A DNA stretch of 64,000 nt from Leptospira sp. (GTDB taxonomy: Bacteria > Spirochaetota > Leptospiria > Leptospirales > Leptospiraceae), in assembly GCA_034439575.1 (NCBI GenBank), contig JAWXAQ010000027.1:64001-128000 (forward strand), in the 5' to 3' direction. How positions within the stretch are numbered: position 1 is the first letter of the stretch; the number at the start of each line of letters is the position of its first letter. Positions 557 to 49,629 of this stretch are shown here, one piece after another. The position numbers and the translations under genes were made by a program. Under the pieces are notes generated by a model. The model searched no databases, had not been told where the DNA came from, and saw only the letters and a list, made by a program, of their open reading frames with translations.

Positions 557-587
557 ATTCTTTCTCTCGCATTGCCATTATAAGCCT

Positions 588-1597: not shown

Positions 1598-1615
1598 CAT
1601 CGAGAGGAAAAGAAC

Positions 1616-7779: not shown

Positions 7780-7837
7780 TTTTTATTCAAAGTGAATTCG
7801 TTGGTAACAAGAATTATTAAATGCAGTTGGAGTGAAT

Positions 7838-8794: not shown

Positions 8795-8811
8795 TTTAGG
8801 TAAAAAATACC

Positions 8812-9411: not shown

Positions 9412-9496
9412 TTCGTTTTCAATATGATAAGTGATTTTTTAACTCTAAAATAATATCTGTTTACTATATAAATTCAGGAATTAGCGCAAAGATAAT

Positions 9497-10129
9497 ATGA
9501 AACAAAAATCATTGGAATTCGCAAAAATATTTCTTTCTCAGATTAATAAATGTGTCAATGAAATAGATTTGGATTTGTTAGCTGATGTCGCCTTGGAGAT
9601 TTATCATGCAAAAGAAGCAGGCAAACAAATATTTTTCTTTGGAAATGGCGGTAGTCATAGTATAGCGACACATCTTGCCTGCGATTTAGGAAAAGGCACG
9701 AAAGTTAATGGAAAAATAAATCAAACATTTTATAAAGTTTTTGCTTTGGATAGTGAAGCTTGGCTAACCGCGCAAGCGAACGATGGTAAAGAACCTTTCA
9801 CTTTAGGAGATTATCCAGGAACATATAACCATGGTTATGATGGTATATTTGTTGGACAGATGGAAAATTTTATTCAAGAAGGTGATATTGCTTTTGGAAT
9901 TTCAAGTTCGGGTAACAGTCAAAACGTTTTAAATGCACTTTTATTTGCGAAAAAAAAAGGCGCTAAAACTATCGCCCTCGTAGGCTTTGATGGGGGAAAA
10001 GCAAAGACAATTGCAGAAAAAGCAATTCTTGTGAAGACAGAACCAGGCAATTACGGGATCGTAGAAGCCGTCCATGAAATAATTCATCATTATATTTATG
10101 AATTACTCAAAAGTTTTGAAAAACAATAA
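9497..10129 (+). CDS. SIS-domain phosphosugar isomerase (GmhA-like)
   Basis: FGNGGS, TAQAND, GISSSGNSQNV, GFDGG, E..H motifs. Confidence 0.85.
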   Translation: MKQKSLEFAKIFLSQINKCVNEIDLDLLADVALEIYHAKEAGKQIFFFGNGGSHSIATHLACDLGKGTKVNGKINQTFYKVFALDSEAWLTAQANDGKEPFTLGDYPGTYNHGYDGIFVGQMENFIQEGDIAFGISSSGNSQNVLNALLFAKKKGAKTIALVGFDGGKAKTIAEKAILVKTEPGNYGIVEAVHEIIHHYIYELLKSFEKQ

Positions 10130-10160
10130 ATACGAATAAATCCGGATATTTAAATCAAAT

Positions 10161-11150
10161 ATGAAATCAAAAATTATAGTCATAGGCAGTAATAGTTTTT
10201 CAGGAGCCTCATTCGTAGACTTTTGTGCAGAATCTGGTTTTGATGTAATTGCAATTAGTCGTTCCGAAGAGTATCCGAATGTTTTTTTACCTTACAAATT
10301 AAACAAAAGAAAAAATGTAACTTTCGTTAAAGCGGATTTAAATACTGATATTGATCTTATAGTTAAAACTATTAAAGATAATAAGGCCTCGCTCATCGTA
10401 AACTTTGCCGCGCAAGGGATGGTTGCTGAAAGTTGGCAAAATCCTATCCATTGGTTTAGAACAAATACTCTCTCACACATTAAATTGCATGATCAATTGA
10501 GAAATTTTGACTTTATTGAAAAATACGTACATATCTCAACTCCAGAAGTTTATGGAAATTGTGAGGGTATTGTTGATGAAACATATCCTTATAATCCGAG
10601 TACACCATATGCAACATCGAAGGCTGCTTGTGATATGAGTTTAAAAACTTTTTATAAAAACTATTCTTTTCCAGTTTGTTGGACCAGAGCAGCAAATGTT
10701 TACGGTGCTTGCCAAGCACTTTACAGAATTATTCCAAAAACAATACTCTCTGTTAAATTGGGAAAAAAATTACCTCTTCATGGTGGTGGGCATTCAATAC
10801 GTGCATTTATTCATATCCGTGATGTATGCGATGCTACACTTAAAATTTTATGCAATTCTGAACCTGGCGAAATATATCACTTATCCACGAGTCGCTTTAT
10901 TTCGATCAGGGATCTTGTGCGGATGATCACAGATTCGTTAGGTGTGGTATATGAAGATGCTGTTGAGATTGTTTCAGATCGTCCTGGAAAAGATTCAGCA
11001 TATACTTTATCTAGTGAGAAACTTCGTAAAACATTGTTATGGGAAGATAAAATATCTCTGGAGAATGGAATCAATGAGACTGTTCGATGGATATCGGATA
11101 ATCTCGATGAACTAAAATTTTTACCTGACTATTATATCCATAAAGAATAA
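10161..11150 (+). CDS. NDP-sugar 4,6-dehydratase-like extended SDR (RmlB-related)
   Basis: GSNSFSG, STPEVYG, PYATSK, NVYG, RAFIHIRD, DRPGKD..Y. Confidence 0.85.
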   Translation: MKSKIIVIGSNSFSGASFVDFCAESGFDVIAISRSEEYPNVFLPYKLNKRKNVTFVKADLNTDIDLIVKTIKDNKASLIVNFAAQGMVAESWQNPIHWFRTNTLSHIKLHDQLRNFDFIEKYVHISTPEVYGNCEGIVDETYPYNPSTPYATSKAACDMSLKTFYKNYSFPVCWTRAANVYGACQALYRIIPKTILSVKLGKKLPLHGGGHSIRAFIHIRDVCDATLKILCNSEPGEIYHLSTSRFISIRDLVRMITDSLGVVYEDAVEIVSDRPGKDSAYTLSSEKLRKTLLWEDKISLENGINETVRWISDNLDELKFLPDYYIHKE

Positions 11151-11213
11151 GAAAAATGAATATAGATTCTAATTTTAAAGAAATAAATTAATAAAAGAGA
11201 AAAAGATATTAAT

Positions 11214-12164
11214 ATGAAAAAAATATTGTTAACGGGCGCTTGTGGGTATGTTGGGACTTTATTAACCAAAGTTTTGTTAAATGAAGGACACTCAGTTATC
11301 GGAGTTGATACTATGTGGTTCGGAAATTTTCTGCCAGAACATCCAAATCTGAAATTAATCAATTCTGATATACGCGATATTGATAACATTCCGATGGATG
11401 GAGTAGATATCATAATACATTTGGCAAATATTGCGAATGATCCTACTGGTGATTTGAATTCAAAAATGACTTGGGAAGTCAATGTTTTGGCTTCTATGTT
11501 ATTAGTAGAAAAAGCAATTAAGAATAAAGTAGGCCAATTTATATTTGCAAGTTCAGGAAGCGTTTATGGTGTCAAAGAGGAGCCTGAAGTAACTGAAGAT
11601 TTGGAATTGATTCCAATAAGTGATTATAACAAAACAAAAATGATAAGCGAAAGAGTTTTACTTAGTTATCGTGATCAAATTTGTGTTCAATGTATTCGAC
11701 CGGCAACAGTTTGTGGTTACTCTCCTCGTATGCGATTGGATTTGTCCGTTAATATGTTGACTATGCAAGCGATTAAGAATAAAAAAATCACTGTATTTGG
11801 CGGAAATCAAACTCGTCCGAATATCCATATAGATGATTTGGTCAGAGTGTATTTGCATTTTATTTCTAAGGGTACAAATCTATCTGGCATATTTAACGCA
11901 GGATTTGAAAACATTTCTATATTAGAAATTGCGAATAGAGTCACAAAACATGCACCAGCGGAAATTATTGTAAGTGAGTCAAATGATCCAAGGTCTTACA
12001 GACTAAATTCAGACAAATTAATAAAGTCAGGATTCAATCCTCAAAAAACAGTAGAAAACGCTATTAAAGAAGTGATTCAAGCATTTCAAGAAGGTATACT
12101 TGTTGATGATGAAAAATTCTACAATGTTAAAATGATGGTTAAGTTAAATTTAAACGGCAAATAG
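11214..12164 (+). CDS. NAD-dependent epimerase/dehydratase
   Basis: TGACGYVG, ASSGSVYG, YNKTK, RPATVCGYSPRMRLDL. Confidence 0.88.
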   Translation: MKKILLTGACGYVGTLLTKVLLNEGHSVIGVDTMWFGNFLPEHPNLKLINSDIRDIDNIPMDGVDIIIHLANIANDPTGDLNSKMTWEVNVLASMLLVEKAIKNKVGQFIFASSGSVYGVKEEPEVTEDLELIPISDYNKTKMISERVLLSYRDQICVQCIRPATVCGYSPRMRLDLSVNMLTMQAIKNKKITVFGGNQTRPNIHIDDLVRVYLHFISKGTNLSGIFNAGFENISILEIANRVTKHAPAEIIVSESNDPRSYRLNSDKLIKSGFNPQKTVENAIKEVIQAFQEGILVDDEKFYNVKMMVKLNLNGK

Positions 12165-12165
12165 T

Positions 12166-12825
12166 ATGGGAAAAGAAATCGACCTTCTAATAAATTACCC
12201 TAAAACTAATAGAAATGTAAATGAAAGAGGTGCTGAAAAAACCGAAGAAGATCGGGCCATCGCCAGAAAATTTGATAAGGAATTTTTTGATGGTGATAGA
12301 CGAACCGGCTATGGCGGTTTTAATTATATGCCAAGATTTTGGCAGCCAGTAATCCCTACCTTTAAAGAATATTGGAATTTAACGGCGGATAGTTCCGTTT
12401 TAGATGTTGGATGCGCAAAAGGGTTTATGTTGTATGATTTATCTCTCCTTATCCCAGGTATAAAAGTAAAAGGCATTGATGTTTCAAACTATGCGATCGA
12501 AAATGCGAAAGAAGAAATTAAACAGAATCTCGAAGTAGCGGATGTTAGAAGTCTTCCTTTCGAAAATGATTCTTTTGACGTTGTCATTTCCATAAATACT
12601 GTCCATAATTTAGAAAAAGATGATCTTGCAATAGCCCTGCAAGAAATCGAACGCGTCAGCCGTGGCAAAAGTTTTATTACAGTCGATGCATTTCGCAATG
12701 ATGAAGAACAACAGAGAATGAATGCTTGGAATCTGACGGCAAAAACAATTATGAGTGTAGATGATTGGGTTAAGTTTTTTAAAGAAGTTGGCTATACTGG
12801 TGATTACTTTTGGTTTATCCCCTAA
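12166..12825 (+). CDS. class I SAM-dependent methyltransferase
   Basis: VLDVGCAKG motif I, GIDVS, LPFENDSFDVVIS. Confidence 0.88.
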   Translation: MGKEIDLLINYPKTNRNVNERGAEKTEEDRAIARKFDKEFFDGDRRTGYGGFNYMPRFWQPVIPTFKEYWNLTADSSVLDVGCAKGFMLYDLSLLIPGIKVKGIDVSNYAIENAKEEIKQNLEVADVRSLPFENDSFDVVISINTVHNLEKDDLAIALQEIERVSRGKSFITVDAFRNDEEQQRMNAWNLTAKTIMSVDDWVKFFKEVGYTGDYFWFIP

Positions 12826-12846
12826 TATTTTTGGATCCGCATAACA

Positions 12847-13812
12847 ATGATTGAAGATTTAAATATTCTCCTACTTCGCTCTATGATGAAAATTAGAATC
12901 GTAGAAGAGATGATAGCTGAAAGATATAACGAAGGTAAAATGAGATGTCCTACTCATTTAAGCATTGGACAGGAAGCTGTATCTGCCGCTGTGGGTTTAG
13001 CTCTTAGAAAGGATGATTTTGCAGTCAGCACACACCGGGCTCACGGTCATTATTTAGGGAAAGGCGGCGATCTAAATCGAATGATCGCTGAGATTTATGG
13101 TAAAGAAACAGGATGCAGCGCGGGTAAGGGTGGCTCTATGCATCTAATCGATACATCTGTCGGATTTATGGGGAGCACCGCTATCGTTGGAAACACGATA
13201 CCAGTTGGGGTCGGACTTGGTCTTTCGATTCGGCTAAACGCGACTGATCAAGTTAGTTGCGTTTTTCTCGGTGATGGTGCCATTGAAGAAGGCTCGTTTT
13301 ATGAGTCTGTTAACTTTGCTGTTCTAAAGAATTTACCCGTAATTTTTATATGCGAAAATAATTTTTATTCAGTATATACACCACTTATAAAAAGACAACC
13401 TCCTGGTCGAAAAATACATGCTATGGTGCGCGAGATGGGAATTGATATTTCCTTTGGCGATGGAAATGATATATTGGCAGTTTATAATAAACTAAAAGAA
13501 ATTATTACTTCCATGAGAACCAATCCGAGACCATTTTTTTTTGAACTAACTACGTATAGGTGGAGAGAACATTGCGGCCCAAATTTTGATAATCATATTG
13601 GATATAGATCGGAAGAAGAATTTCAGCTCTGGAAAGAAAGAGATCCGATTCGAATATTTCAAGATAAGTTAATTTCATCATCTTCATTATCAACGAAAGT
13701 TATAGACCAATTAAATCTTGAATTAACTTTAGAAGCACAAAAAGCATTTGAATTTGCAGAAAATTCTCCATACCCTCACGAGAGAGAAATTTTCACTCAC
13801 GAGTATAAGTAA
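12847..13812 (+). CDS. TPP-dependent dehydrogenase E1 alpha subunit-like
   Basis: HLSIGQEA, THRAHGH, GKGGSMH, GDGA...ENN TPP motif, YRWREH. Confidence 0.92.
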   Translation: MIEDLNILLLRSMMKIRIVEEMIAERYNEGKMRCPTHLSIGQEAVSAAVGLALRKDDFAVSTHRAHGHYLGKGGDLNRMIAEIYGKETGCSAGKGGSMHLIDTSVGFMGSTAIVGNTIPVGVGLGLSIRLNATDQVSCVFLGDGAIEEGSFYESVNFAVLKNLPVIFICENNFYSVYTPLIKRQPPGRKIHAMVREMGIDISFGDGNDILAVYNKLKEIITSMRTNPRPFFFELTTYRWREHCGPNFDNHIGYRSEEEFQLWKERDPIRIFQDKLISSSSLSTKVIDQLNLELTLEAQKAFEFAENSPYPHEREIFTHEYK

Positions 13813-13813
13813 T

Positions 13814-14872
13814 ATGAGTAGACCAATATTATATTCAGAAGCTATCAATGAAGCACTTTTTGTTGCTATGGAAAAAGACCAAAAAGTAATCAAATTTGGG
13901 TTAGGTGTTGATGATCCGAAGGGTGTATTTGGGACGACACTAGGTTTACAAGAAAGATTTGGTAGCGAACGGGTTTTTGATATGCCAACATCGGAAAATG
14001 GCATGACTGGAATAGCAATTGGTGCCTCACTGAATGGAATTCGTCCAGTGATGACACACCAGCGTTTAGATTTTTTTCTTTTGGCTTTGGATCAATTGGT
14101 GAATAATGCAGCTAAGTGGCATTTTATGTTTGGTGGTCAATCTTCTATACCTATTACCATTCGTTTGATCCTTGGACATGGATGGGGACAAGGACCTACT
14201 CATTCTCAAAATTTGCAATCTTGGTTCGCCCATATTCCTGGTCTAAAGGTTGTTATGCCAACAACGGCGGCAGACGCTAAAGGTTTGCTTTTATCTTCCA
14301 TTTTTGATGAGAACCCAGTTGTATTTCTAGAGCACCGATGGCTCCATAATACAATAGGTGAAGTGCCTGAGGGTGATTTTCGTATTCCGATTGGAAAAGC
14401 CAATTTACTTAAAACGGGATCTGATATTACAATTGTTTCAATGTCGTATATGACTATCGAAGCTCTACATGCAATTGAATACTTAGAATTAAATAATATT
14501 AGTTGTGACTTAATTGATTTAAGAACGGTTCGTCCAATTGATTGGGAATTAATATTTAATTCAGTAGGTAAAACTGGAAGACTTTTGGTTTTAGATACTG
14601 CATCAGAATTTTGTTCCGTTTCAAGTGAAATAGTAGCTACCGTAGTTTCCAAGTTATTTGGAAAATTAAAACAGGCCCCAATGCGGATCGCACAACCGGA
14701 CAAAGCATCACCTACCAGTTTTGAATTAACAAAACACTATTATCGTAGGGCTGAAGACATTTTTAAAACAGTTGGTGAAATGTTAGGTGTAGATTTAGAT
14801 ACTTCTGACATAATAAATAGTAGAAAATTTCCTCACGATGTTCCTGGGGATTGGTTCAAAGGTCCCTTCTGA
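13814..14872 (+). CDS. TPP-dependent dehydrogenase E1 beta subunit-like (transketolase C-terminal type)
   Basis: ERVFDMPTSEN, GPTHSQ, PGLKVVMP, PVVFLEHR, IDLRTVRPID; ATG 13814 lies 1 nt after the alpha stop. Confidence 0.92.
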   Translation: MSRPILYSEAINEALFVAMEKDQKVIKFGLGVDDPKGVFGTTLGLQERFGSERVFDMPTSENGMTGIAIGASLNGIRPVMTHQRLDFFLLALDQLVNNAAKWHFMFGGQSSIPITIRLILGHGWGQGPTHSQNLQSWFAHIPGLKVVMPTTAADAKGLLLSSIFDENPVVFLEHRWLHNTIGEVPEGDFRIPIGKANLLKTGSDITIVSMSYMTIEALHAIEYLELNNISCDLIDLRTVRPIDWELIFNSVGKTGRLLVLDTASEFCSVSSEIVATVVSKLFGKLKQAPMRIAQPDKASPTSFELTKHYYRRAEDIFKTVGEMLGVDLDTSDIINSRKFPHDVPGDWFKGPF

Positions 14873-14905
14873 TATGAATGTATTTTATTAATTAAAAAAA
14901 TAAGA

Positions 14906-16678
14906 ATGAAGTTATCTGATTATATAATAGATTTTCTCGCCAAAAAGAATGTGACTCATTTTTTTGGAATGTCTGGTGGTGCAGCAGTTCATTTGTTTGA
15001 TTCTGTATCAAAACATAAAGATACTCATTATGTTTGTTCTCAACATGAGCAATCAGCAGCAATTTCTGCCGATGGATATGCACGAGTTACTGGAAAATTG
15101 GGTGTAGCAATTACGACTAGTGGTCCTGGTGCAACTAATCTTTTAACGGGCGTATGTTGTTCTTATTATGATTCTATACCCACGCTAATGTTAACAGGAC
15201 AGGTTTCTAGACAAAGATTAAAGAAAGATTTAAAAGTTAGGCAACTTGGTTTCCAAGAAACAGATATCGTCGATATTTTCCGATCTGTTACTAAATACTC
15301 TGCTCAAGTTCTTGATCCTGGGTCCATTCGATATCATTTAGAAAAAGCATATTATTATGCCTTTGAAGGAAGACCAGGATCCGTATTACTTGATATTCCT
15401 GATGATTTGCAACGTGTAGAGATTAATCCTGATGAACTTCAAGGTTTTTCACCGGATAAAATAGAATATGATTTTTCAAAGATAAATGTACAAATTAAAG
15501 AATTGTTAGAATTAATAAAATTAAGCAAACGTCCAATTATTGTGTTAGGTGGTGGATTAAATACTCCTAGAATCGACTCAAAAAAACTTGAGAATATAAT
15601 AAATATTTTAAAGATTCCTGTATTATGTTCATGGGCTGGTGTTGATACGATTGAAGGAGAAAATCCATATAACATTGGAACATTTGGTGTTTATGGTCCA
15701 AGGTTTGGAAATTTTGCGATACAAAATTCTGATTTGATTATTAGTTTAGGTTGTCGATTATCTCAAAATTTAACAGGAGGAATACTATCTTCCTTCGCAA
15801 CTGAAGCAAGGATTATAATGGTTGATGCTGATAAAGCAGAATTAGATAAATTTGATAATCGTGGCATTGATATACATCATAGAATTCAATCATCCTTGGA
15901 TTTATTTATCAATTCATTACTTCCTGAGCTAAAAGACTATGCAGAGAATTTTCAAGAATGGTTAACGAAAGTTAAATTTTGGAAAGAAAAATTTCCGCTC
16001 ACACGACAAACTATAAAAACAAATAACCATGTTGATGCGTATGAATTCGTGGCAAAACTATCAAAGTATGCATCTCCAGGAGAAAAAATATTTGTAGATA
16101 CTGGTGGGAATTTAACTTGGACTTTGAATCAATGGAAAGTTAAAAAAGACCAAAGAATTATTTCTGCATGGAATAATACTCCTATGGGTTATTCTTTGCC
16201 AGCGAGCATTGGAGCAGCATTTGCAAATTCTCAAGACTCTATAACATGTATAATCGGGGATGGTGGATTAATGATTTGTCTCTCCGAGTTGGCGACTCTT
16301 TTGAAGCATAAATTGAATATTAAGGTATTCTTATTTAATAATCATTCGCACGGTATACAAAAGCAGACTCTTCAAACTTGGTTAAATGGTAATTATGTGG
16401 GAGTCGATCCAGACTCAGGATTAGCATTTCCTGATTTTAAAAAAGTAGCTACAGCATTCGATCTACAATTATTTGATATTTATAATGAAGATGACTTAGA
16501 TCAGAATCTTCAAGAAATTTATAAAATCAAAGGGCCAGTTTTCTGTAATGTGGAAATTAACCCAGATCAAAAATTATATCCTGTAGTAAAGTTTGGTGCC
16601 GCACTCGAAAACCAACTTCCACAACTAGATGAAGAAATAATTAAATCTGAAATGATTGTTAAACCTTTTAATTTATAA
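14906..16678 (+). CDS. acetolactate-synthase-like TPP-binding protein (YerE-like carboligase)
   Basis: HEQSAAISADGYAR, TSGPGATN, GFQETD, GRPG.VLLDIP.D, GDGG...NN; no ALS small subunit nearby. Confidence 0.9.
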   Translation: MKLSDYIIDFLAKKNVTHFFGMSGGAAVHLFDSVSKHKDTHYVCSQHEQSAAISADGYARVTGKLGVAITTSGPGATNLLTGVCCSYYDSIPTLMLTGQVSRQRLKKDLKVRQLGFQETDIVDIFRSVTKYSAQVLDPGSIRYHLEKAYYYAFEGRPGSVLLDIPDDLQRVEINPDELQGFSPDKIEYDFSKINVQIKELLELIKLSKRPIIVLGGGLNTPRIDSKKLENIINILKIPVLCSWAGVDTIEGENPYNIGTFGVYGPRFGNFAIQNSDLIISLGCRLSQNLTGGILSSFATEARIIMVDADKAELDKFDNRGIDIHHRIQSSLDLFINSLLPELKDYAENFQEWLTKVKFWKEKFPLTRQTIKTNNHVDAYEFVAKLSKYASPGEKIFVDTGGNLTWTLNQWKVKKDQRIISAWNNTPMGYSLPASIGAAFANSQDSITCIIGDGGLMICLSELATLLKHKLNIKVFLFNNHSHGIQKQTLQTWLNGNYVGVDPDSGLAFPDFKKVATAFDLQLFDIYNEDDLDQNLQEIYKIKGPVFCNVEINPDQKLYPVVKFGAALENQLPQLDEEIIKSEMIVKPFNL

Positions 16679-16679
16679 A

Positions 16680-17480
16680 ATGCAGGATTCAATTTTAATT
16701 ATCGGAATTAGTAGTGATATTGGAATCAATCTTGCTAAATTATACCAAGAGAAGGGATACCAAGTTTATGGCACTGCAAGAGATTCTTCTCAGATCAACA
16801 CAATAGAAAATACAAAGATATTCAATCTTGATTTTTCAAAGCCCGAAAGTATTTCGGATTGCGCTAAACTTATTTTAAATGATGGAATCACATTTTCAAA
16901 GGTGATTTTTTCTATCGGTTTACTCAGTCCGATCGGGAATTTTTTTGATTTAGACTTTGATGAGTGGCAGGCATCCTTCGCGATCAATTCATTGCATCAA
17001 TTAAAGTTTCTGCATATTTTAAGACCTTTACTATCGCAAGGCAGTTCCGTTATTTTTTTTCACGGCGGGGCACCTAACGGTGTGCTGGTTAATTATTCAG
17101 CATATAGTTTGGCAAAGGTCACTTTGGCAAAATTTGTAGAATACTTAGATGCAGAGGATTCTGGAGTGAGTTATTTTATTCTCGGTACAGGTTGGGTTAG
17201 AACGAAACTTCATAATCAATCGATAGACGCAGGATCAAAGGCGGGGATTAATTTTTCTAGAACTAAAGAATTCTTGGAAAATGATCATAAGGGAACAAGT
17301 TTTCAGGAAATTTTTGATTGCATTAATTGGTTTTCTGAAAAGGGAAAAAAGGTTGCAGGTGGTCGCAATTTTTCAATCGTTTCTGATGCCTGGGGCGATA
17401 AATCTGACAAGTCTAGTGCCTTAGTTGACGAATTGATACTCGATGCTGATATGTATAAGTTAAGACGATATAAAAATTAA
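16680..17480 (+). CDS. short-chain dehydrogenase/reductase
   Basis: GISSDIG nucleotide-binding variant, YSLAK catalytic motif; ATG 16680 follows the upstream stop. Confidence 0.8.
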   Translation: MQDSILIIGISSDIGINLAKLYQEKGYQVYGTARDSSQINTIENTKIFNLDFSKPESISDCAKLILNDGITFSKVIFSIGLLSPIGNFFDLDFDEWQASFAINSLHQLKFLHILRPLLSQGSSVIFFHGGAPNGVLVNYSAYSLAKVTLAKFVEYLDAEDSGVSYFILGTGWVRTKLHNQSIDAGSKAGINFSRTKEFLENDHKGTSFQEIFDCINWFSEKGKKVAGGRNFSIVSDAWGDKSDKSSALVDELILDADMYKLRRYKN

Positions 17481-17497
17481 TCTTTAAGAGTTTATAA

Positions 17498-18355: not shown

Positions 18356-18356
18356 A

Positions 18357-18881: not shown

Positions 18882-18882
18882 T

Positions 18883-19410: not shown

Positions 19411-19424
19411 AATTAATTAAAGTT

Positions 19425-20402: not shown

Positions 20403-21442
20403 AAGCCGCTGTATTATTTAATATTGGAAAACCACTTGAAATATGTGAACTAACATTACCTGAATTGTTGGAGGGACAAATTCTTGTTAAACTAGCATAC
20501 AGTGGAGTTTGTCATAGTCAACTAATGGAAGTTTCTGGTGGACGAGGTGAAGACAAATATTTGCCACATCTTCTAGGTCATGAAGGATCTGGTGTTGTTG
20601 TTTCCATTGGACCTTCAGTGAAAAAATTGAGAGTAGGGGACCCTGTTATTCTTGGTTGGATTAAAGGAACAGGAATAGATGCTATTGGGGCAAAGTATAA
20701 ATATAAAGATTTGATAATAAACTCGGGTGGAGTAACAACATTTAGTGAATATTCGGTAGTATCTGAAAATAGATGTACTCTTTTACCAAAAGGTTTGCCA
20801 CTAGACATTGCTGTACTCTTTGGTTGTGCAATTCCAACTGGTTCGGGCATAATCAAAAATGCATTAAATCCAGCACCAAATAGTACCATCGCAATCTTTG
20901 GGTTAGGTGGAATCGGTTTGAGTGCTTTGATTCTTTGTAAATTATACAATCCATCAAGTCTTATTGCTATAGATATTGAAAAAAGTAAGTTGGAAATGGC
21001 AAAAAAATTAGGCGCAACAAATTTGATCAATGCTTCCGTTGAAGATCCCATAAAGGCCATCATGAATATCACTGATGGAAAGGGAGTAGATTATGCAATG
21101 GAAGCAGCTGGATTAAGCAGCACGATTGAGCAGGCTTTTGATTCTGTAAGAAGAAAAGGAGGACTACTCGTATTTGCTTCGCACCCTAAACAGGGAGATA
21201 AAATAAAAATTGATCCATTTGAATTGATCAATGGTAAAAATATTCGTGGAAGTTGGGGTGGTGAATCTAACCCAGATATTGATATTCCATATTATGCAAA
21301 TTTATACACGGAAGGTAAGTTACCTTTAGACCTTTTGATTACAAAAAAATATAAGTTAAATGAAATTAATGAAGCCCTTTTTGATTTAAAAAATCATAAA
21401 GTCCATAGACCAATACTAGAAATTGATTCATCCTTAAACTGA
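20399..21442 (+). CDS. zinc-binding alcohol dehydrogenase
   Basis: GVCHSQ, LGHEGSG, FGCAIPTG, GLGGIG; lacks the 4-Cys structural-zinc loop. Confidence 0.9.
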   Translation: MKAAVLFNIGKPLEICELTLPELLEGQILVKLAYSGVCHSQLMEVSGGRGEDKYLPHLLGHEGSGVVVSIGPSVKKLRVGDPVILGWIKGTGIDAIGAKYKYKDLIINSGGVTTFSEYSVVSENRCTLLPKGLPLDIAVLFGCAIPTGSGIIKNALNPAPNSTIAIFGLGGIGLSALILCKLYNPSSLIAIDIEKSKLEMAKKLGATNLINASVEDPIKAIMNITDGKGVDYAMEAAGLSSTIEQAFDSVRRKGGLLVFASHPKQGDKIKIDPFELINGKNIRGSWGGESNPDIDIPYYANLYTEGKLPLDLLITKKYKLNEINEALFDLKNHKVHRPILEIDSSLN

Positions 21443-21488
21443 TTCTTCTATAATAATAATAACACTTTTCCTATTTAAATAAACTATA

Positions 21489-22967
21489 ATGTCCCAACAT
21501 ACTCACGACATAAAACAAATATCAGAACTTGCTAAAGAAAGTCAAAAAGTCATTTTTGTGACAGGGATTTTTAACATTGTTCATCCAGGACATCTTCGTT
21601 TGCTAAAATTTGCCAAAGAGTGCGGAGATATATTAGTTGTCGGTGTGATAAAGACTGGAATGTCTCAGGAGATTATTGAATCACAATATAGACTGGAAGG
21701 AATCCAATCCATTGGATTTGTTGATTATGCTTTTATTTTAAATGAACCGATAGAAGACTTTATAGTTCAATTAAAACCATATGCTATCGTCAAAGGAAAA
21801 GAACACGAGTTAAACTATAATCCTGAAATTTCTATCCTCGAAAGTTATGGAGGAAAACTAATTTTTGGATCAGGAGATATTATTTTCTCCTCTTCCGATC
21901 TCCTCTCAAAAGAATTTAATGAGTTAAATTTTTCCACAATCAAGAAGCCAAAGGATTTTCCAATACGCCATAATTTCACAATGGAAAGCATAAAGGAAAT
22001 TTTGGACTCTTTCAAAAGATTGAAAGTTTGTGTCATTGGCGATACCATTGTTGATGAATATATAAATTGCAACGCTCTTGGTATGTCTCAAGAGGACCCA
22101 ACAATAGTTGTAACACCCATTAAGTCGGATATGTATGTCGGCGGAGCTGCCATCGTCGCCGCACATGCGAAGAGTTTAGGTGCCAATGTAACTTTTTTTT
22201 CCCTCGCGGGCGAAGATGCTGCCTATAAATTTGTGTCTGGAAGATTGGATGATATGGGCATTCAAGCTTACTTTTTTCTAGATGAAAGCCGTCCTACGAC
22301 ATTAAAACAAAGATACCGAGCAGAATCAAAAACACTTTTAAGGGTCAGTCATTTAAGACAACATGAGATGTCTACCGAATTGATTGATAAAATGTTTAAT
22401 CAATTTAAACAATTAGCAAACAACTTTGATTTATTAATTTTTTCTGATTTTAATTACGGATGTTTACCTCAGTCACTTGTGGAAAAGATTTCAGAGTTAT
22501 GCAAAAAAAATGGGGTTATGATGGTAGCCGATAGCCAATCATCTTCCCAAATAGGTGATGTGTCTCGTTTCAAAGGAATGCAATTTTTAACCCCGACCGA
22601 AAGAGAAGCTCGCCTCGCGACACGAGAATTTGGTATGGGTCTCGTAGTGTTAGCTGAAGAACTTCGTGTCAAAGCAAATGCTAAAAATATATTCATCACC
22701 CTGGGATCTGATGGCTTACTCATTCATGCAGAATTATCCTCTAAAAACCAGTGGTTAACAGATAGACTTCCTGCTTTCAATACAGCACCAAAAGACACAG
22801 CAGGTTCAGGTGACTCGTTTTTAACAGCGGCATCCATGTCTAGTGCCGTTGGGGGAAATATCTGGCAAAGTGCCTATATAGGTTCGCTAGCTGCTGCATG
22901 TCAAGTAGGTAGGGTTGGAAATATTCCTCTTCGTCCAGAAGAAATACTGAAAGAAATCGAGATTTGA
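21489..22967 (+). CDS. bifunctional cytidylyltransferase-like / PfkB sugar kinase (HldE-like, reversed domain order)
   Basis: N-terminal FNIVHPGH (HxGH) and VKG; C-terminal GD.IVDEY, GGAA, SDFNYG, TPTERE, DTAGSGD. Confidence 0.88.
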   Translation: MSQHTHDIKQISELAKESQKVIFVTGIFNIVHPGHLRLLKFAKECGDILVVGVIKTGMSQEIIESQYRLEGIQSIGFVDYAFILNEPIEDFIVQLKPYAIVKGKEHELNYNPEISILESYGGKLIFGSGDIIFSSSDLLSKEFNELNFSTIKKPKDFPIRHNFTMESIKEILDSFKRLKVCVIGDTIVDEYINCNALGMSQEDPTIVVTPIKSDMYVGGAAIVAAHAKSLGANVTFFSLAGEDAAYKFVSGRLDDMGIQAYFFLDESRPTTLKQRYRAESKTLLRVSHLRQHEMSTELIDKMFNQFKQLANNFDLLIFSDFNYGCLPQSLVEKISELCKKNGVMMVADSQSSSQIGDVSRFKGMQFLTPTEREARLATREFGMGLVVLAEELRVKANAKNIFITLGSDGLLIHAELSSKNQWLTDRLPAFNTAPKDTAGSGDSFLTAASMSSAVGGNIWQSAYIGSLAAACQVGRVGNIPLRPEEILKEIEI

Positions 22968-23091
22968 GTTCAGCATTCTAATAATTAGGATCAAATATTC
23001 TACAAATTTTATTACTTTACCAGCGCAATTATTAATTTACCCTAGATTTGCGTTAGAATAAGTTTAATTTGTAGGCTAAAAGCGACAGGAG

Positions 23092-25152
23092 TTGTTTTTG
23101 AAAAAAGAAAAAGTATACCTAGCTGACCTAACTCATACAGGACAAGTCGTTGCTTCAAATATAGCTCCACTCGGCATTGGATTGATAGCATCTTATGCTA
23201 AAATTCAAAAACCAGATTTAGCTGACTTTAGTCTTTATAAATATCCTGAAGATTTTAATCAAGCACTCGAAACTGAGATTCCCAAAGTCGTAGGATTTGC
23301 GAATTATTCTTGGAACTGTGAACTGGCGTATAAGTTTACCGAAAAAATAAAAGCAAAATCTCCTTCAACGGTCGTTGTGTTTGGTGGTCCAAATTATGGA
23401 TTGGAAACTGAAGAAATAGAAACTTTTTGGGAAAATTATCCACTCATAGATTTCTATGTTGTTAAAGAAGGTGAAGTTGCTTTCTTACAATTATTGGAAA
23501 AACTAATAGATAATGATTTTAACGTTGAAAAAGTTAAACGAGCTGCAGAACCACCTTTAAACTGTACTTTTAGGTTAGATGGAAAGCTTGTGAATACTGA
23601 TTTATTGCCTCGAATTAACAATTTGGATGAATTAGGCTCTCCTTATTTGTCTGGACTCATGGATAAATTTTTCGATGGCGTTCTCATTCCGATGATTCAC
23701 ACAACACGTGGTTGCCCATTTACCTGTGCATTTTGTACTGAAGGTGCGAAATACTATTCGAAAGTTACGCAGAGGATTGATTTACGTGAGGAACTCGAAT
23801 ACATTGCTGAAAGAAGAAAAACAATCCAAGATCTGACAATCACAGATGCAAATTTTGGAATGTGGTCGCAAGACATAGATAAAGCGACCATATTAGCAGA
23901 AATTCAAAAGAAATATGAATGGCCTAAACGCATTTTAGTATCCACAGGTAAAAATCAAAAAGAACGAGTTGTCGAAGTAGCAGGTATGTTAAATGGAGCG
24001 GTTCAAGTAGCGGCATCTTTACAATCTACAAATGAAGAAATTTTAAAAAATATAAAACGTTCTAATATTTCTCAAGACGCCTTGACTCAAATGGTAGAAC
24101 AAAGCGGGCAAGCAGAATCCAGCACTTATACGGAACTTATTCTTTGTTTACCTGGTGACACATTTGAGACTCATATTCAAAGTTTAAGGGATGTAGTAAA
24201 TAGCGGTATTGGTATAGTCCGAATGTACCAATTGATCTTATTACCACAGACAGAATTAAACACACCCGATACTCGTAGAAAATATGGAATGAAAACTAAA
24301 TTTCGAATCAATCCGAGATCATTCGGTATTTATCGAATGTTAGGTGAGAGTGTTCCTGCAATCGAGAGTGAAGAGATATGCATTCAAAATGATACCATGA
24401 GCTTTGAAACATATCTCGAATGTCGGGAGATGGACTTAACGATTGAAATGTTACACAACACTGGATTATTTCAAGAATTACAAGGATTGGTGAAACATTA
24501 TAATCTATCTTGGTTCGATTTCCTTTATTCATTTTATGAAGGACGTAGAAATTTTTCAGGAGAACTTACTCAGCTATTCAATAATTTTACTTCGGATACC
24601 AAAAGTAGACTTTGGGATAGCAAAGAAGATCTGATGCATCATGTTGAAGAAAATATGGAATCATATTTGAATGATCCATACGGAACAAATGAAATGGCTA
24701 CTTCAAAGGCACTTGCTTTTTTTCGAATTTCATCAGAATTGCATGATATCTTATTCAATCTTATGCGTGAAATTTTAATTAAACGTGACTTATTAAATGA
24801 AGTGAATGATCTATATTTAGAACAACTTAAGAAATTTAGTTTTTTACGTAAGAATGAATTATTGGATACTTCCTTGACTTTATCAGAAGATTTCGACTTT
24901 GATTTTGATTTGATTCGCAAAAAGAATTATCAGATTGAACCTGCAGATTATAAATTAACAGATAAAAAGACATTTAATTTCTTTCATTCCGTTGATCAAA
25001 TTCCACTTATCGATGGTTATATTACACAATATGGAAAATCTATCGATGGGCTAGGGCGAATATTAATGAGAGCACCTGTAAAATCTTTCTTTAGAGATAT
25101 CCAAACAGTAGCTACTAAATCTTCAGGTCTAACCATGGAAAGTTTTGGCTGA
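23092..25152 (+). CDS. B12-binding domain radical SAM protein
   Basis: PLGIGLIASY, GFANYSWN, GGPN, EGE, TTRGCPFTCAFC, DANFG, LPGDT; AGGAG RBS and TTG start. Confidence 0.88.
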   Translation: MFLKKEKVYLADLTHTGQVVASNIAPLGIGLIASYAKIQKPDLADFSLYKYPEDFNQALETEIPKVVGFANYSWNCELAYKFTEKIKAKSPSTVVVFGGPNYGLETEEIETFWENYPLIDFYVVKEGEVAFLQLLEKLIDNDFNVEKVKRAAEPPLNCTFRLDGKLVNTDLLPRINNLDELGSPYLSGLMDKFFDGVLIPMIHTTRGCPFTCAFCTEGAKYYSKVTQRIDLREELEYIAERRKTIQDLTITDANFGMWSQDIDKATILAEIQKKYEWPKRILVSTGKNQKERVVEVAGMLNGAVQVAASLQSTNEEILKNIKRSNISQDALTQMVEQSGQAESSTYTELILCLPGDTFETHIQSLRDVVNSGIGIVRMYQLILLPQTELNTPDTRRKYGMKTKFRINPRSFGIYRMLGESVPAIESEEICIQNDTMSFETYLECREMDLTIEMLHNTGLFQELQGLVKHYNLSWFDFLYSFYEGRRNFSGELTQLFNNFTSDTKSRLWDSKEDLMHHVEENMESYLNDPYGTNEMATSKALAFFRISSELHDILFNLMREILIKRDLLNEVNDLYLEQLKKFSFLRKNELLDTSLTLSEDFDFDFDLIRKKNYQIEPADYKLTDKKTFNFFHSVDQIPLIDGYITQYGKSIDGLGRILMRAPVKSFFRDIQTVATKSSGLTMESFG

Positions 25153-25188
25153 GTTCGATTAAATTTCATTTTCATTCAAAACTTCCAC

Positions 25189-25998
25189 ATGCATGATAAT
25201 GATAATTTAAAAGTCGCTAAAAAAAGGTTTTTGATAATTGGCTGTGCCCAAGGGCATGGTCAATTTATTGCAACCCGACTAATGCAGCAGGGTCATTCCC
25301 TTATCATGTTAGATGCAAAGGATGATATAATTAATTTAGGCGAAGAGTTTAAAAAAGAAAATCCAAACATATCAGCCCATATATTCAATGTTTTGAACTT
25401 TTCTGATTACGATAATTTCTTAAAAAAAGTGATCGGCTCCAACGGAATTGATGGAGTATTATACTTCCCTAGGTTTCGGGCAGAAGCGGATTTTATGAAA
25501 ATTACTCCCGAAGAATGGCAGTTAGATATTGATATTGGAGTGAAGGGAATATTTTTTCTATCTAGATCTTTAATACCATATTTGAACCCAAAGCTTTCTT
25601 CCATCATTTTATATTCGTCATTACTTTCCTCACTTGTCGGTAGCGAAAGTGTGAGTTACCATGTTTCAAAAGCAGGCTTAGAGCAACTTTGTCGGTACAT
25701 GGCAGTAAAATTTGCACCCATTAATATTCGTGTGAATACTATTAAAATCGGTATCTGTTTAAAAGATGGGGTATTGAATTCTGGTGTACTAAAATTACAG
25801 CCTCGTTGGGAAATATTTAAAAAGATTCAACCAAGTGGTCAGTTTAGTCATTCTGAAGATTTGTCAAACCTAACTAATTTCTTGTTAAGTGATTCTATAG
25901 CTAATATAACAGGACAGATTTTTACCTTAGATGGTGGTTTGTCTATACAAGAGCATTCATTTATGGCGACGTCTGCATTCTTAGAAAATGACAAATGA
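25189..25998 (+). CDS. short-chain dehydrogenase/reductase (divergent)
   Basis: GCAQGHG, YHVSK, IRVNTI, ITGQIFTLDGG. Confidence 0.82.
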   Translation: MHDNDNLKVAKKRFLIIGCAQGHGQFIATRLMQQGHSLIMLDAKDDIINLGEEFKKENPNISAHIFNVLNFSDYDNFLKKVIGSNGIDGVLYFPRFRAEADFMKITPEEWQLDIDIGVKGIFFLSRSLIPYLNPKLSSIILYSSLLSSLVGSESVSYHVSKAGLEQLCRYMAVKFAPINIRVNTIKIGICLKDGVLNSGVLKLQPRWEIFKKIQPSGQFSHSEDLSNLTNFLLSDSIANITGQIFTLDGGLSIQEHSFMATSAFLENDK

Positions 25999-26791
25999 GT
26001 GTCTGCACAATCGAGTTGCAATTGTTACTGGGGCTTCCAAAGGAATAGGACTTGGAATTGCCAAAGAATTTGCGGAACAAGGTGCAAATTTAGTTCTATG
26101 TGCTAGAAATAAGACAGGATTAAAAAACATTCTCAATGATTTTGGTCCAAAACAATCTAGAGTTGAAACTATAGATGTTGATTTAAGTCAGAAAAATTCT
26201 GCAAAAAGTATTGTTGATTTTACTTTAGGAAAATTCGGTAAAATAGATATAATTGTCAATAATGTTGGTGGAATTACTCAAACAGGTCAATTTGAAGATC
26301 TTAATGATTCTGATTGGATAGATTCATTAGAGTTAAATTTATTATCATCTGTGCGACTCATTAGAGAAGCTATACCATTACTTAGAAAAAGTGATTATGG
26401 TAGAGTGATAAATATATCATCATTCGTAGCGAAAGAGCCAGGCAAATTCAATCCACATTATTCTGCATCAAAAGCAGGTTTGCTTAATTTGAGTAAATAT
26501 CTGTCAAATTATTTGGCAAATGATCATATAACAGTCAATACTATATCTCCTGGAAATATTGAGACAGAAGGATGGGAAGATTATATTGAAAACAAATCTT
26601 CTTCTGAGAATATCGATATAAATATTATTCGAGATCAAGAACAAAAAAGAGTCATTGCATCTATTCCACTCGGTAGACAAGGTAAAGTTGTGGAGATTGC
26701 TAGAATGGTTTCATTCTTGGCATCAGATAATGGAAGTTATATTACTGGAGCAAATATCGTCATTGATGGCGGAAAATTAAGAAGCTTATAA
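25988..26791 (+). CDS. short-chain dehydrogenase/reductase (classical)
   Basis: TGASKGIG, VNNVG, YSASK, ITGANIVIDGG. Confidence 0.9.
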   Translation: MTNECLHNRVAIVTGASKGIGLGIAKEFAEQGANLVLCARNKTGLKNILNDFGPKQSRVETIDVDLSQKNSAKSIVDFTLGKFGKIDIIVNNVGGITQTGQFEDLNDSDWIDSLELNLLSSVRLIREAIPLLRKSDYGRVINISSFVAKEPGKFNPHYSASKAGLLNLSKYLSNYLANDHITVNTISPGNIETEGWEDYIENKSSSENIDINIIRDQEQKRVIASIPLGRQGKVVEIARMVSFLASDNGSYITGANIVIDGGKLRSL

Positions 26792-26794
26792 ATT

Positions 26795-27529
26795 ATGAAA
26801 AAAACATTAACAATTGGAATTCCCGCATATAACGAAGAAAAAAATATTCGCGATACTTTCTTAACAATCACAAAAGCTCATAAAAAATTTAAAGATTTAA
26901 ATCTTGATATAATAATTATTAATGATGGGAGCAAAGATAGGACTGCAGAAATAGCTGACGAGATCGCATCCCTTAATAAGAATGTTTTAGTTATTCATAA
27001 TGAAATTAATGAAGGATTAGGCGTAGGATTTAGAAAAGCATTAGCTAGCGCTAAAGGAGATTACTTTCTATTTGTCCCTGGTGATAACGATTTACCTGTA
27101 GAGCTTCTAGTCTCTCTTTTTGCAGAAATTGGAAAAGCGGATATTATCATTTCTTATTTTCTTAATCGCGAGGTTAGGGGAAGAATTAGGAATACAATTT
27201 CGATTATCTATAACACAGTTTACATGGTTACTTTTGGTGTATTTGTTTTTTACATAAATGGTCCCGCAATTTATCATACTGAAAAATTAAAACAATTAAA
27301 CCTTAATGCGAATCGTTTTAGTATCATAGTAGAAGCAACGATTAAAATACTTTGTTCTGGAGCGACTTTTTTAGAAGTCCCAGGTAAACTTCAGACTGGA
27401 TCAAATGGAAGTACTGCAATGTCCTTTCGCAATTTACGTGAAGTGATTAAAGCTTTTTTTCTTTTGATTTGGGAAGTCAAATATAAGAATAAAAATAAAT
27501 ATTCGAATCCACCAGTTAGAAATTCATAA
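26795..27529 (+). CDS. GT2 glycosyltransferase, DPM-synthase/polyprenol-phosphate type
   Basis: IPAYNEE, NDGSKD, N.GLG, PGDND; 244 aa single domain. Confidence 0.85.
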   Translation: MKKTLTIGIPAYNEEKNIRDTFLTITKAHKKFKDLNLDIIIINDGSKDRTAEIADEIASLNKNVLVIHNEINEGLGVGFRKALASAKGDYFLFVPGDNDLPVELLVSLFAEIGKADIIISYFLNREVRGRIRNTISIIYNTVYMVTFGVFVFYINGPAIYHTEKLKQLNLNANRFSIIVEATIKILCSGATFLEVPGKLQTGSNGSTAMSFRNLREVIKAFFLLIWEVKYKNKNKYSNPPVRNS

Positions 27530-27554
27530 AATTTATAACATAATATTTCTGATT

Positions 27555-28265
27555 ATGAAAGCCTTGTTACTTGCTGCTGGTTTCGGTACTAGATTAAGAC
27601 CTGTCACTGATAGGATTCCGAAATGCCTTGTACCGATTAATGGTAAGCCATTATTGGAAATTTGGCTCGAGCTTTTAGAAAAAGCAGATTTATCTGGAAT
27701 CATTGTTAACTTACATTATCTACCAGAAAAGGTTATTAATTTTTTAGATAATAGTAAATTTAAAAATAGAGTTACAACTGTTTACGAAAAAGAATTGTTA
27801 GGCACGGCCGGTACTTTACTTTCAAATAGACAATCTTATCCCTCAGAAGCTGTAATTCTCATTCATGCAGATAATCTTTCACAATTTGATATTATTGATT
27901 TTATTCAATCACATAACAAAAGGCCTATCGGATGTGAAATCACAATGATGACTTTCAAGACGGATTTACCTAAGTTATGCGGAATCGTTGAATCAGATGC
28001 AGAGAATAGATTGATCGGATTCTATGAGAAAGTGGAAAATCCGCCTGGCAATCTAGCAAATGGCGCAGTTTACATTGTGGAACCTTCTGTGATTCAATTT
28101 CTAATATCTTTAAATAAAGAAGTCATAGATTTTAGTACTGAAGTTATACCAAATTACCTAGGTAGAATTTTTTTATATGAAAACAACACTTACCATCGAG
28201 ACATAGGTAATTTGGAAAGTTATGCGATAGGACAAAGAGAATATCAATCGCTGCCAAAAATATGA
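27555..28265 (+). CDS. sugar-1-phosphate nucleotidyltransferase (HddC/GMPP-like)
   Basis: LAAGFGTRLRPVT..PKCL, LLGTAG, FYEK, ANGAVY, DIG. Confidence 0.9.
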   Translation: MKALLLAAGFGTRLRPVTDRIPKCLVPINGKPLLEIWLELLEKADLSGIIVNLHYLPEKVINFLDNSKFKNRVTTVYEKELLGTAGTLLSNRQSYPSEAVILIHADNLSQFDIIDFIQSHNKRPIGCEITMMTFKTDLPKLCGIVESDAENRLIGFYEKVENPPGNLANGAVYIVEPSVIQFLISLNKEVIDFSTEVIPNYLGRIFLYENNTYHRDIGNLESYAIGQREYQSLPKI

Positions 28266-32246: not shown

Positions 32247-32282
32247 AAAAATTTAAAATTGCGAAATTAGGGAAATAAATTT

Positions 32283-35459: not shown

Positions 35460-35462
35460 ATA

Positions 35463-38651: not shown

Positions 38652-38655
38652 ACAA

Positions 38656-41279: not shown

Positions 41280-41303
41280 ACTAAATTATTATTGGAGAAA
41301 TGT

Positions 41304-42389: not shown

Positions 42390-42427
42390 TACTAAGATTT
42401 GTTAAATAGAGAATAAATTAACCGAAA

Positions 42428-49619: not shown

Positions 49620-49629
49620 GAATTCGTTT

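Follow-up and report, generated by a model that had tools for sequence, protein, structure and literature searches.

Two types of thiamine diphosphate (ThDP) enzymes were found in one cluster of sugar-nucleotide genes in a stretch of DNA from Leptospira sp. (assembly GCA_034439575.1, contig JAWXAQ010000027.1). The analyzed stretch, herein referred to as the window, is 64,000 nucleotides long, corresponds to positions 64,001 to 128,000 of the contig (G000:C27:64001-128000), and comes from an assembly of 4.1 Mb with a GC content of 35.7%. On balance, we favor the view that positions 9497-30310 of the window are a single module of a very large spirochaete surface-glycan locus, most likely making and exporting an undescribed C-branched, methylated, higher-carbon sugar. 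A preliminary description of this DNA had suggested that two C-C-forming systems, a pyruvate dehydrogenase (PDH)-type E1 alpha/beta pair and an acetolactate synthase (ALS)-like enzyme, could produce a C-branched or higher-carbon sugar. This is the best reading because both enzymes are extra, non-housekeeping copies, the ALS-like one has affinity to YerE, and its pairing with the E1 subunits is conserved. Two parts of the suggestion, the acceptor and the long-branch class of the product, found no support.

All 16 genes named in that description were found by Pfam and NCBIfam at positions 9497-28265 on the + strand, with rfbFGH downstream, and the start given for the E1 beta gene (13814) is a true ATG. 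Four further genes were found inside these borders, encoding two small membrane proteins, a flippase-like protein, and a short family 2 glycosyltransferase (GT2), and a fifth one, for a GT-C enzyme of the PMT_2 family, just past them. Cofactor and catalytic motifs are intact in E1 alpha, in the ALS-like protein, in a B12-binding radical S-adenosylmethionine (SAM) enzyme, and in both halves of a kinase/nucleotidyltransferase. The arrangement of these genes is beyond chance, since the same set recurs, with its order shuffled, around ALS-like relatives in metagenome contigs. All open reading frames (ORFs) of at least 120 aa that were taken as genes between positions 537 and 60694 lie on the + strand. 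Promoter-like and terminator-like sites at 8500-28400 are no commoner than in shuffled sequences (90 vs. 90.2 and 12 vs. 9.8). Genes for the spirochaete FlaA sheath protein gave 4 matches in the assembly vs. none in 14 control genomes. A 16S gene was absent from the assembly, and the sheath genes, together with the named nearest relative of one protein, are what mark the organism as a spirochaete.

The orphan E1 pair is encoded at 12847-13812 (alpha; E1_dh domain) and 13814-14872 (beta; Transket_pyr and Transketolase_C domains), and the alpha subunit has the GDG..NN motif at residues 142-172. The gene at 14906-16678 encodes a YerE-like (ALS-like) ThDP carboligase of 590 aa with all three TPP domains (TPP_enzyme_N, M, and C), HEQ at residue 47, and GDG..NN at residues 451-479. 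For these three proteins, every NCBIfam score falls below the family cut-off: 287 vs. 394 bits for E1 alpha (TIGR03182), 296 vs. 321 bits for E1 beta (NF006667), and 395 vs. 538 bits for the ALS-like protein (TIGR00118). No E2, E3, or ALS small subunit was found among the 59 window ORFs scanned, in agreement with the preliminary description. The genome's own pdhA and pdhB genes were found by whole-genome tblastn at C27:221670-223574, being 35 and 37% identical to the window E1 alpha and beta; an E2 gene is located directly downstream of them (C27:220314-221003) and another at C33:228815. Two other ALS genes, each about 28.5% identical to the window protein by tblastn, are present in the genome, and its sole ALS small subunit gene (ALS_ss_C, ilvN; C33:254285) follows one of them, the own ilvB (28.6% identity). 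Both paralogs keep the RFDDR motif, at the place of which the window protein has RLSQN. The window protein therefore departs from IlvB in score, in small subunit partner, and in the RFDDR motif, and the E1 pair departs from PDH-complex E1 in its scores and in the absence of E2 and E3 partners. The features of alpha-KADH2 enzymes, namely an orphan E1 alpha/beta pair with an intact ThDP motif in a sugar-nucleotide cluster, were found.

By their family-level names, PDH E1 and acetolactate synthase, these proteins could be spare housekeeping copies that lie in a glycan locus by accident. Such an explanation is extremely improbable, since complete housekeeping sets with adjoining E2 and ilvN genes exist elsewhere, all scores are under equivalog cut-offs, the RFDDR motif is lost, and linkage to sugar genes is conserved across loci. 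Within the genus, cassette-type E1 beta was found in only 1 of 40 other genomes (G019). Of 36 other genomes, one gave a match to the ALS-like protein at E <= 1e-100, with an identity of only 33%. The preliminary description had named clustering with housekeeping ilvB or pdhAB as the outcome that would speak against it. This outcome was not observed: besides the separate complete sets and the scores below cut-off, the own ALS paralogs form the outgroup of the tree described below. Both ThDP enzymes are thus additional copies belonging to a sugar-nucleotide pathway.

Metagenomes were scanned with an alignment of 23 ALS-like relatives as the query, and 80 loci were returned. Window proteins were compared with these loci by tblastn; after removal of matches covering less than half of the query, 75 loci retained an ALS-like row. 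The identity thresholds used for gene presence are our own choice. The recurring cassette includes genes for a GmhA-like isomerase, heptose-type kinase and nucleotidyltransferases, two extended short-chain dehydrogenases/reductases (SDRs) of C4-oxidizing type, a methyltransferase, E1 alpha and beta, the ALS-like enzyme, a further SDR, an FkbM-family methyltransferase, and a Zn-dependent alcohol dehydrogenase. At least one E1 subunit was found in 27 of the 75 loci, and both subunits in 13 of the 19 whose flanks extend for 7 kb or more on each side and whose ALS identity is 39% or higher. The pairing of ALS-like and orphan E1 genes is therefore conserved across many unrelated contigs.

The composition of the cassette was assessed in the 14 long-flank loci containing both E1 and ALS-like genes. 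The class I SAM methyltransferase (12166-12825 in the window; Methyltransf_11/25) was found in all of them and is the most conserved member, with 51-74% identity in related loci. The SDR encoded at 16680-17480 (adh_short; ATG start at 16680) was likewise found in 14 of 14 loci, the PfkB kinase in 12, and each of the two extended SDRs, FkbM, and the alcohol dehydrogenase in 10. The isomerase was detected in 6 loci, probably an under-count at an identity of about 30%, and the nucleoside triphosphate (NTP) transferase (at least 40% identity) and the B12 radical SAM enzyme in 4 each. Membership in the cassette is kept while gene order varies from locus to locus. The B12 radical SAM gene recurs next to two SDR genes in L011, L056, and L067; in L050, two SDR genes are located beside a radical SAM gene whose product gave no match to the window's 23092 protein. 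In the literature covered, which did not extend to the cluster catalogue of Krug et al. (2024), neither this cassette nor a ThDP enzyme with a heptose substrate was found to be described.

Relatives of the ALS-like protein number in the hundreds at 56-67% identity, and their named sources include a Leptospiraceae metagenome-assembled genome, Verrucomicrobia/Opitutae, Rhodopseudomonas palustris, and Sneathiella. The R. palustris homologs P0035 and P0054 are about 60% identical to the window protein. A search of genome contigs gave only two loci, both from Ignatzschineria and 23% identical, and the plasmid collection contained no match at E <= 1e-100. Among solved structures, 8rph is closest with 325 bits, ahead of 5ahk with 268 bits, and we take these two to be the YerE-like proteins JanthE and PpYerE; plant and yeast acetohydroxyacid synthases (AHAS) follow at 258 bits.

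A tree was built with IQ-TREE (quick mode, LG+G4) from 69 full-length rows, of which 66 come from the loci, one is the window protein, and two are the own paralogs; ORFs shorter than 520 aa were dropped. The own paralogs form the outgroup with a support of 100. All 24 E1-linked rows (23 loci and the window) fall within one clade of 47 rows with an SH-aLRT (approximate likelihood ratio test) support of 98; its other members are 19 rows with short flanks, and 4 rows that have long flanks but no E1. All 6 rows linked to rfbH or rfbF/G fall outside this clade. The window protein is thus nearer to the YerE type than to AHAS, both by structure-match scores and by the tree. Judged by its sequence, the protein is a sister of the YerE type outside the 3,6-dideoxyhexose-linked group, because the rfb-linked rows lie outside its clade and rfbH was found in none of the 27 E1-linked loci.

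YerE transfers a C2 unit from pyruvate onto cytidine diphosphate (CDP)-4-keto-3,6-dideoxyglucose, while ErwE, MMAR_2332, and MyGE use long gamma-hydroxy keto acids supplied by a cluster-encoded aldolase; a putative cluster of R. palustris CGA009 also contains an aldolase (PMC9306805). The same acceptor, and a sugar of the yersiniose/erwiniose/caryophyllose class, had been considered for the window. Its rfbF, rfbG, and rfbH genes (30364-33914, + strand; each above the NCBIfam cut-off) begin 13.7-15.6 kb beyond the ALS-like gene and share its strand, and more distant ALS-like relatives (33-43% identity) are found beside rfbF/G/H in L060, L065, L068, L071, L072, and L085. Nevertheless, it is very unlikely that the window enzyme acts like YerE or ErwE on the product of rfbFGH. 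In addition to the absence of rfbH from the E1-linked loci and the position of the rfb-linked proteins in the tree, the window rfbFGH genes are a separate module, because an SDR, a GT2, and a DUF2079 membrane protein of their own follow them. No HpcH_HpaI aldolase was found on contig C27 or among the Pfam-scanned ORFs of 16 related loci, although the published long-branch clusters encode one (PMC9306805). For lack of an aldolase on the contig and in these scanned ORFs, a long-branch keto-acid donor was rejected; neither the erwiniose/caryophyllose class nor CDP-4-keto-3,6-dideoxyglucose as the acceptor is supported.

The remaining cassette genes point to activation of a heptose-type sugar. The isomerase (9497-10129, + strand; SIS_2) is a divergent GmhA-like protein: among solved structures it best matches phosphoheptose isomerases, with 65 bits; it scores 88.6 vs. 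209 bits for gmhA (TIGR00441), has an insertion of about 15 residues, and has HLACDL where GmhA has HFAEEL. It thus falls outside GmhA proper by score and by the acid motif. A gene for a DAO-type FAD oxidoreductase is located directly before the GmhA-like gene in L023 (3501-4706) and in L092 (5271-6347; from the same-genus genome G019), and none adjoins position 9497 in the window.

The protein encoded at 21489-22967 (+ strand) resembles HldE with its domains reversed: a CTP_transf_like domain (residues 24-105) precedes a PfkB heptose-type kinase domain (179-480). Its scores are 186 vs. 345 bits for rfaE_dom_I and 62.7 vs. 181 bits for the second HldE domain. The motifs HxGH (residue 32) and GSGD (residue 439) are present, and the kinase half is nearest to HldA (4e84, 65.7 bits). 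By domain order and by both scores, it is not an HldE proper. A ManC/HddC-type sugar-1-phosphate nucleotidylyltransferase (27555-28265, + strand; NTP_transferase) has its best PDB matches among mannose-1-phosphate guanylyltransferases (93 bits), followed by HddC (5xhw, 65 bits), and 45-55% identical orthologs were found in related loci and in clusters having only E1. Genes for HAD phosphatases were found in 8 related loci. Elsewhere in the genome, another GmhA-like gene is located at C22:34818 and another gene for a heptose-type kinase at C22:62961.

Two extended SDRs are candidates for producing keto-sugars. The first (10161-11150, + strand) is RmlB-like and best matches the deoxythymidine diphosphate (dTDP)-glucose 4,6-dehydratase 6bi4 (176 bits). 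It has STPEVYG where 6bi4 has STDEVYG, and the S/T-P-E motif, with Pro replacing the Asp of 6bi4 and 2hun, is present in 19 of 19 cassette orthologs. With 216 vs. 365 bits for TIGR01181 and an altered T-D-E triad, it stands outside RmlB. The second SDR (11214-12164, + strand) is a candidate nucleoside diphosphate-heptose C4 dehydrogenase or epimerase. Its best PDB matches are 6vo6 and 6vo8 (137.8 bits), followed by uridine diphosphate-glucuronic acid 4-epimerases and UXS at 78-89 bits. The entry 6vo6 is presumably Campylobacter jejuni Cj1427, a guanosine diphosphate (GDP)-heptose C4 dehydrogenase.

From these assignments, the following pathway can be proposed. A ketose phosphate, probably sedoheptulose 7-phosphate, would be isomerized by the GmhA-like enzyme, and phosphorylated at C1 by the heptose-type kinase; it would receive its nucleotide from the fused cytidylyltransferase-like domain, the ManC/HddC-like transferase, or both. 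The two extended SDRs would provide keto-sugar acceptors. The E1 pair and the YerE-like enzyme would then each add a ThDP-bound acyl anion, in the simplest case a hydroxyethyl unit from pyruvate, to a sugar ketone, giving a tertiary-alcohol branch. The branch ketone would be reduced by the SDR at 16680, which is placed like YerF, and the product would be methylated by the FkbM-family enzyme (17498-18355, + strand; TIGR01444, 77.7 bits, above cut-off). Tailoring could be finished by the class I methyltransferase, the Zn-dependent medium-chain alcohol dehydrogenase (20399-21442, + strand; ADH_N and ADH_zinc_N), and, as accessories, the B12 radical SAM enzyme and the two classical SDRs that accompany it (25189-25998 and 25988-26791, + strand; adh_short_C2). 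The radical SAM protein (23092-25152, + strand; B12-binding and Radical_SAM domains, CxxxCxxC at residue 208) is a candidate C-methylase scoring 164 bits, below cut-off, for the KedN5 family. For export, the GT2 (26795-27529, + strand; Glycos_transf_2, 244 aa), a candidate polyprenyl-phosphate sugar transferase, would load the sugar onto polyprenyl phosphate. The flippase-like protein (19425-20402, + strand; LPG_synthase_TM, 117 bits; TIGR00374, 71.7 bits, above cut-off) would turn it outward, and the GT-C-type membrane glycosyltransferase (28262-30310, + strand; PMT_2, 34.4 bits, above cut-off; 682 aa) would transfer it to an envelope acceptor.

Several observations weigh against this pathway. 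The heptose assignment is based on weak scores, all below NCBIfam cut-offs, and may be mistaken; the SDR at 10161 lacks the triad Asp, so that its role as a dehydratase may be doubted; two nucleotidyltransferases are present in the module; and no GmhB-type phosphatase was found in the genome with TIGR00213 or with the HAD protein of L099 as the query. The lipid-carrier route is suggested by family names alone, and conservation of the cassette in the metagenome loci does not extend to the GT2, flippase-like, and GT-C genes. A quaternary C4 could not be re-oxidized, and two additions to one sugar would therefore need a second keto position. Finally, the two ThDP units are separable, as described below.

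Some of these points would be accommodated if one of the ThDP enzymes did not branch a sugar but made or trimmed a small donor or substituent. For example, E1 alpha/beta might build a deoxy-ketose phosphate upstream of the isomerase in a DXS-like reaction, or the kinase and the cytidylyltransferase-like domain might activate a phospho-alcohol head group. The cytidylyltransferase-like domain has been retained alongside the NTP transferase, and a single activated sugar does not need both; the divergence of the isomerase and the missing heptose bisphosphate phosphatase are in line with this explanation as well. It is nonetheless unlikely, given that the E1 subunits score as PDH-type and near the family cut-offs, that such orphan pairs are known C2-branching enzymes of antibiotic sugars (PMC12247030), and that the HAD phosphatases of the 8 related loci fit an ordinary heptose route. 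A phosphonate pathway, suggested by the combination of a B12 radical SAM enzyme and a cytidylyltransferase as in fosfomycin synthesis, was also considered; phosphoenolpyruvate mutase is absent from the genome, and this route is therefore ruled out.

Separability of the ThDP units is evident in the phylum. In a sample of 401 genomes, cassette-type E1 beta was found in 8, including this genome, and among the 7 others an ALS-like protein that exceeds the housekeeping level is encoded in G190 alone (47% identity, on the same contig as E1 beta). Genomes G019, G280, and G205 contain genes for the isomerase, the NTP transferase, the reversed HldE-like protein, the 11214-type SDR, E1 alpha/beta, and DegT aminotransferases. 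In G356, locus L099 encodes a HAD phosphatase, the NTP transferase, the isomerase, both extended SDRs (61 and 66% identity), the methyltransferase (74%), and E1 alpha/beta (61 and 72%), and no ALS-like gene was found there. The E1 unit of L099 is followed by a fused SDR-FkbM gene, a split transketolase, a GT2 46% identical to that of the window, and, after the GT2, a relative of the small membrane ORF 18357 (35% identity). The fusion (L099:14915-16615) is a single protein of 566 aa joining a 16680-type SDR to FkbM, which suggests reduction and then methylation on the same group. A split transketolase is also located beside the ALS-like gene in L011, L040, L051, and L060. Conversely, no E1 gene was seen within 7-10 kb in four long-flank loci whose ALS-like proteins belong to the E1-linked clade. 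We read this as a core, made up of activation genes plus the E1 unit, that is extended by a second carboligase unit consisting of the ALS-like enzyme or a transketolase with an SDR and FkbM.

Such a distribution would also be expected if the E1 unit and the ALS unit each turned a common activated precursor into a separate sugar with a single branch, both sugars entering the same glycan. In that case, the E1 unit would consist of the isomerase, kinase/nucleotidyltransferases, 11214-type SDR, methyltransferase, and E1 alpha/beta, and the ALS unit of the 10161-type SDR, ALS-like enzyme, SDR, FkbM, and alcohol dehydrogenase. Each unit thus has its own SDR of C4-oxidizing type; 6 of the 7 other phylum genomes with the E1 unit have no ALS-like gene, and in G019, G280, and G205 the unit is instead paired with DegT aminotransferases; same-clade ALS-like genes occur without E1 in the four loci mentioned. 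Moreover, the units are separate blocks in L017, L027, and L031, and L032 has one unit on each strand, rfbF/rfbG taking the place of the 10161-type SDR. Against two products stand the single GT2 and single GT-C of the window module, the single GT2 in which L099 also ends, the interleaved gene order in the window and in L023, L042, L043, L030, and L039, and the separate clade formed by E1-linked ALS-like proteins. We regard two singly branched sugars as a less probable alternative that deserves some weight.

Both carboligations acting on one sugar is the version we favor, because the module has one GT2 and one GT-C enzyme, and it is the weakest step of the proposed pathway. As a bolder extension, offered tentatively, a kit of up to three ThDP carboligases (orphan E1 alpha/beta, YerE-like enzyme, and split transketolase), shared across many phyla, may act on one activated heptose, using the oxidizable secondary alcohols at C4 and at the exocyclic C6 to install at least two acyl branches. 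The resulting methylated sugars would have at least 11 carbons, be new to glycan chemistry, and, in this organism, be delivered to the envelope by a lipid carrier.

Two genes of the module encode small membrane proteins without a family (18357-18881 and 18862-19410, both on the + strand). The translation of the first has hydrophobic N-terminal segments, and that of the second gave no Pfam match at E <= 1; no similarity between the two was detected, and they are not paralogs. Downstream of the module, the region 30364-37064 contains rfbFGH, then genes for an extended SDR (33911), a short GT2 nearest to ArnC/AglJ-type polyprenyl-phosphate transferases (34767), and a DUF2079 protein (35463), and appears to be a lipid-carrier module in its own right, serving a 3,6-dideoxyhexose. 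No E3-type reductase (RfbI/AscD) was found among the window ORFs scanned. The RfbH ORF (32283) is 543 aa long and its family match begins at residue 102, leaving about 100 N-terminal residues (32283-32600) without a family, which are due either to a wrongly placed start or to an extra domain.

A short GT2 paired with a large membrane protein is seen again at 34767/35463 and at 37179/38656; a further case may be present at 42428. Positions 37179-44476 contain two further candidate modules of the same build: in the first, a hexapeptide acyltransferase fused to a GT2 (37179) is followed by a DUF2079 protein (38656), and in the second, an SDR (40287) and a DegT aminotransferase (41292) are followed by a protein of 682 aa without a family (42428). 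Upstream of the module, within 537-3927, another B12-binding radical SAM gene (1616) lies between genes for an MptE-like protein and a CTP_transf_3 cytidylyltransferase, and a radical SAM/SPASM gene (7832-8794) adjoins that for a hexapeptide acetyltransferase. Genes for a FabH-like ketoacyl synthase (KAS III), an SDR, and a GNAT-domain protein are grouped at 48627-51307 in the glycan locus, which hints at an acyl substituent made on site.

ThDP-dependent sugar branching is known from one lipopolysaccharide (LPS) sugar family, of YerE type, and from a few actinomycete antibiotics, of E1 type, and a review treats the two apart from each other (PMC12247030). In the cassette described here, both types are combined in one conserved set, sometimes with a split transketolase, together with heptose-type genes and in unrelated bacteria; this combination predicts an undescribed surface sugar. 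The module is rare in the genus and therefore probably defines a strain-specific surface antigen. Its approximately 12 genes are a defined set for enzymologists to reconstitute, and the enzymes are of interest as catalysts for tertiary alcohols.

Comparison with known systems reveals partial likenesses. The module resembles polyprenyl-phosphate routes, in which a GtrB/ArnC-type GT2 acts with a flippase and a GT-C enzyme such as ArnT or PMT, in having predicted counterparts of all three, namely a GT2, a flippase-like protein, and a PMT_2 protein. Unlike in these routes, the flippase candidate is of LPG_synthase_TM type rather than GtrA or ArnE/F, and the GT2 has only 244 aa.

C. jejuni forms 4-keto GDP-heptoses both by a 4,6-dehydratase and by the C4 dehydrogenase Cj1427 (PMC10680097). 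It continues with epimerases and C4 reductases and is not known to use a ThDP enzyme. The window has one SDR of each general type, C4 dehydrogenase and 4,6-dehydratase. In contrast to C. jejuni, its dehydratase-like SDR has T-P-E, and its kinase is of PfkB type and fused in reversed order. For the O-antigen region of Coxiella burnetii, no mention of E1-like genes was found in passages of PMC13552124, PMC5843353, PMC3539893, and PMC13252051, and none are claimed here. The C. burnetii protein CBU0678 is encoded in the O-antigen region and is needed for full-length LPS (PMC5843353 and PMC13252051). Like CBU0678, in which an adenylyltransferase-like domain comes first, the window protein encoded at 21489 has a nucleotidyltransferase domain before a heptose-type kinase, a likeness in domain order.

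YerE/YerF of the yersiniose A pathway and the YerE-like ErwE, MMAR_2332, MyGE, JanthE, and PpYerE share with the window system an ALS-fold ThDP enzyme without a small subunit, encoded among sugar-nucleotide genes and with an adjoining reductase gene. Unlike the YerE group, the window protein belongs to a separate clade tied to E1 alpha/beta and heptose-type genes, with no rfbH in the cassette (0 of 27 loci), and, unlike the long-donor enzymes of that group, no aldolase was found with the cassette on the contig or in the scanned ORFs of 16 loci.

All three ThDP families are known to form tertiary-alcohol sugar branches (PMC12247030): the C2 branches of sugars in aldgamycin, kibdelomycin, paulomycin, and avilamycin are introduced by orphan E1 alpha/beta pairs, and transketolases are the third branching class. 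In the same review, YerE-like proteins are treated as LPS enzymes and E1-type proteins, separately, as enzymes of secondary metabolism. The window E1 pair, lacking E2 and E3 and located in a sugar-nucleotide cluster, is like the alpha-KADH2 enzymes (AlmDI/DII, KbDH-alpha/beta, AviB1/B2, and those of paulomycin) in its gene context. Relatives of the window E1 occur beside aminotransferases, as in kibdelomycin, whose branch ketone is transaminated (PMC12247030). Unlike the actinomycete alpha-KADH2 enzymes, window-type E1 genes are found in envelope-glycan loci of Gram-negative-type and uncultured bacteria, where they are tied to heptose-type activation genes and are often accompanied by a second or third ThDP carboligase.

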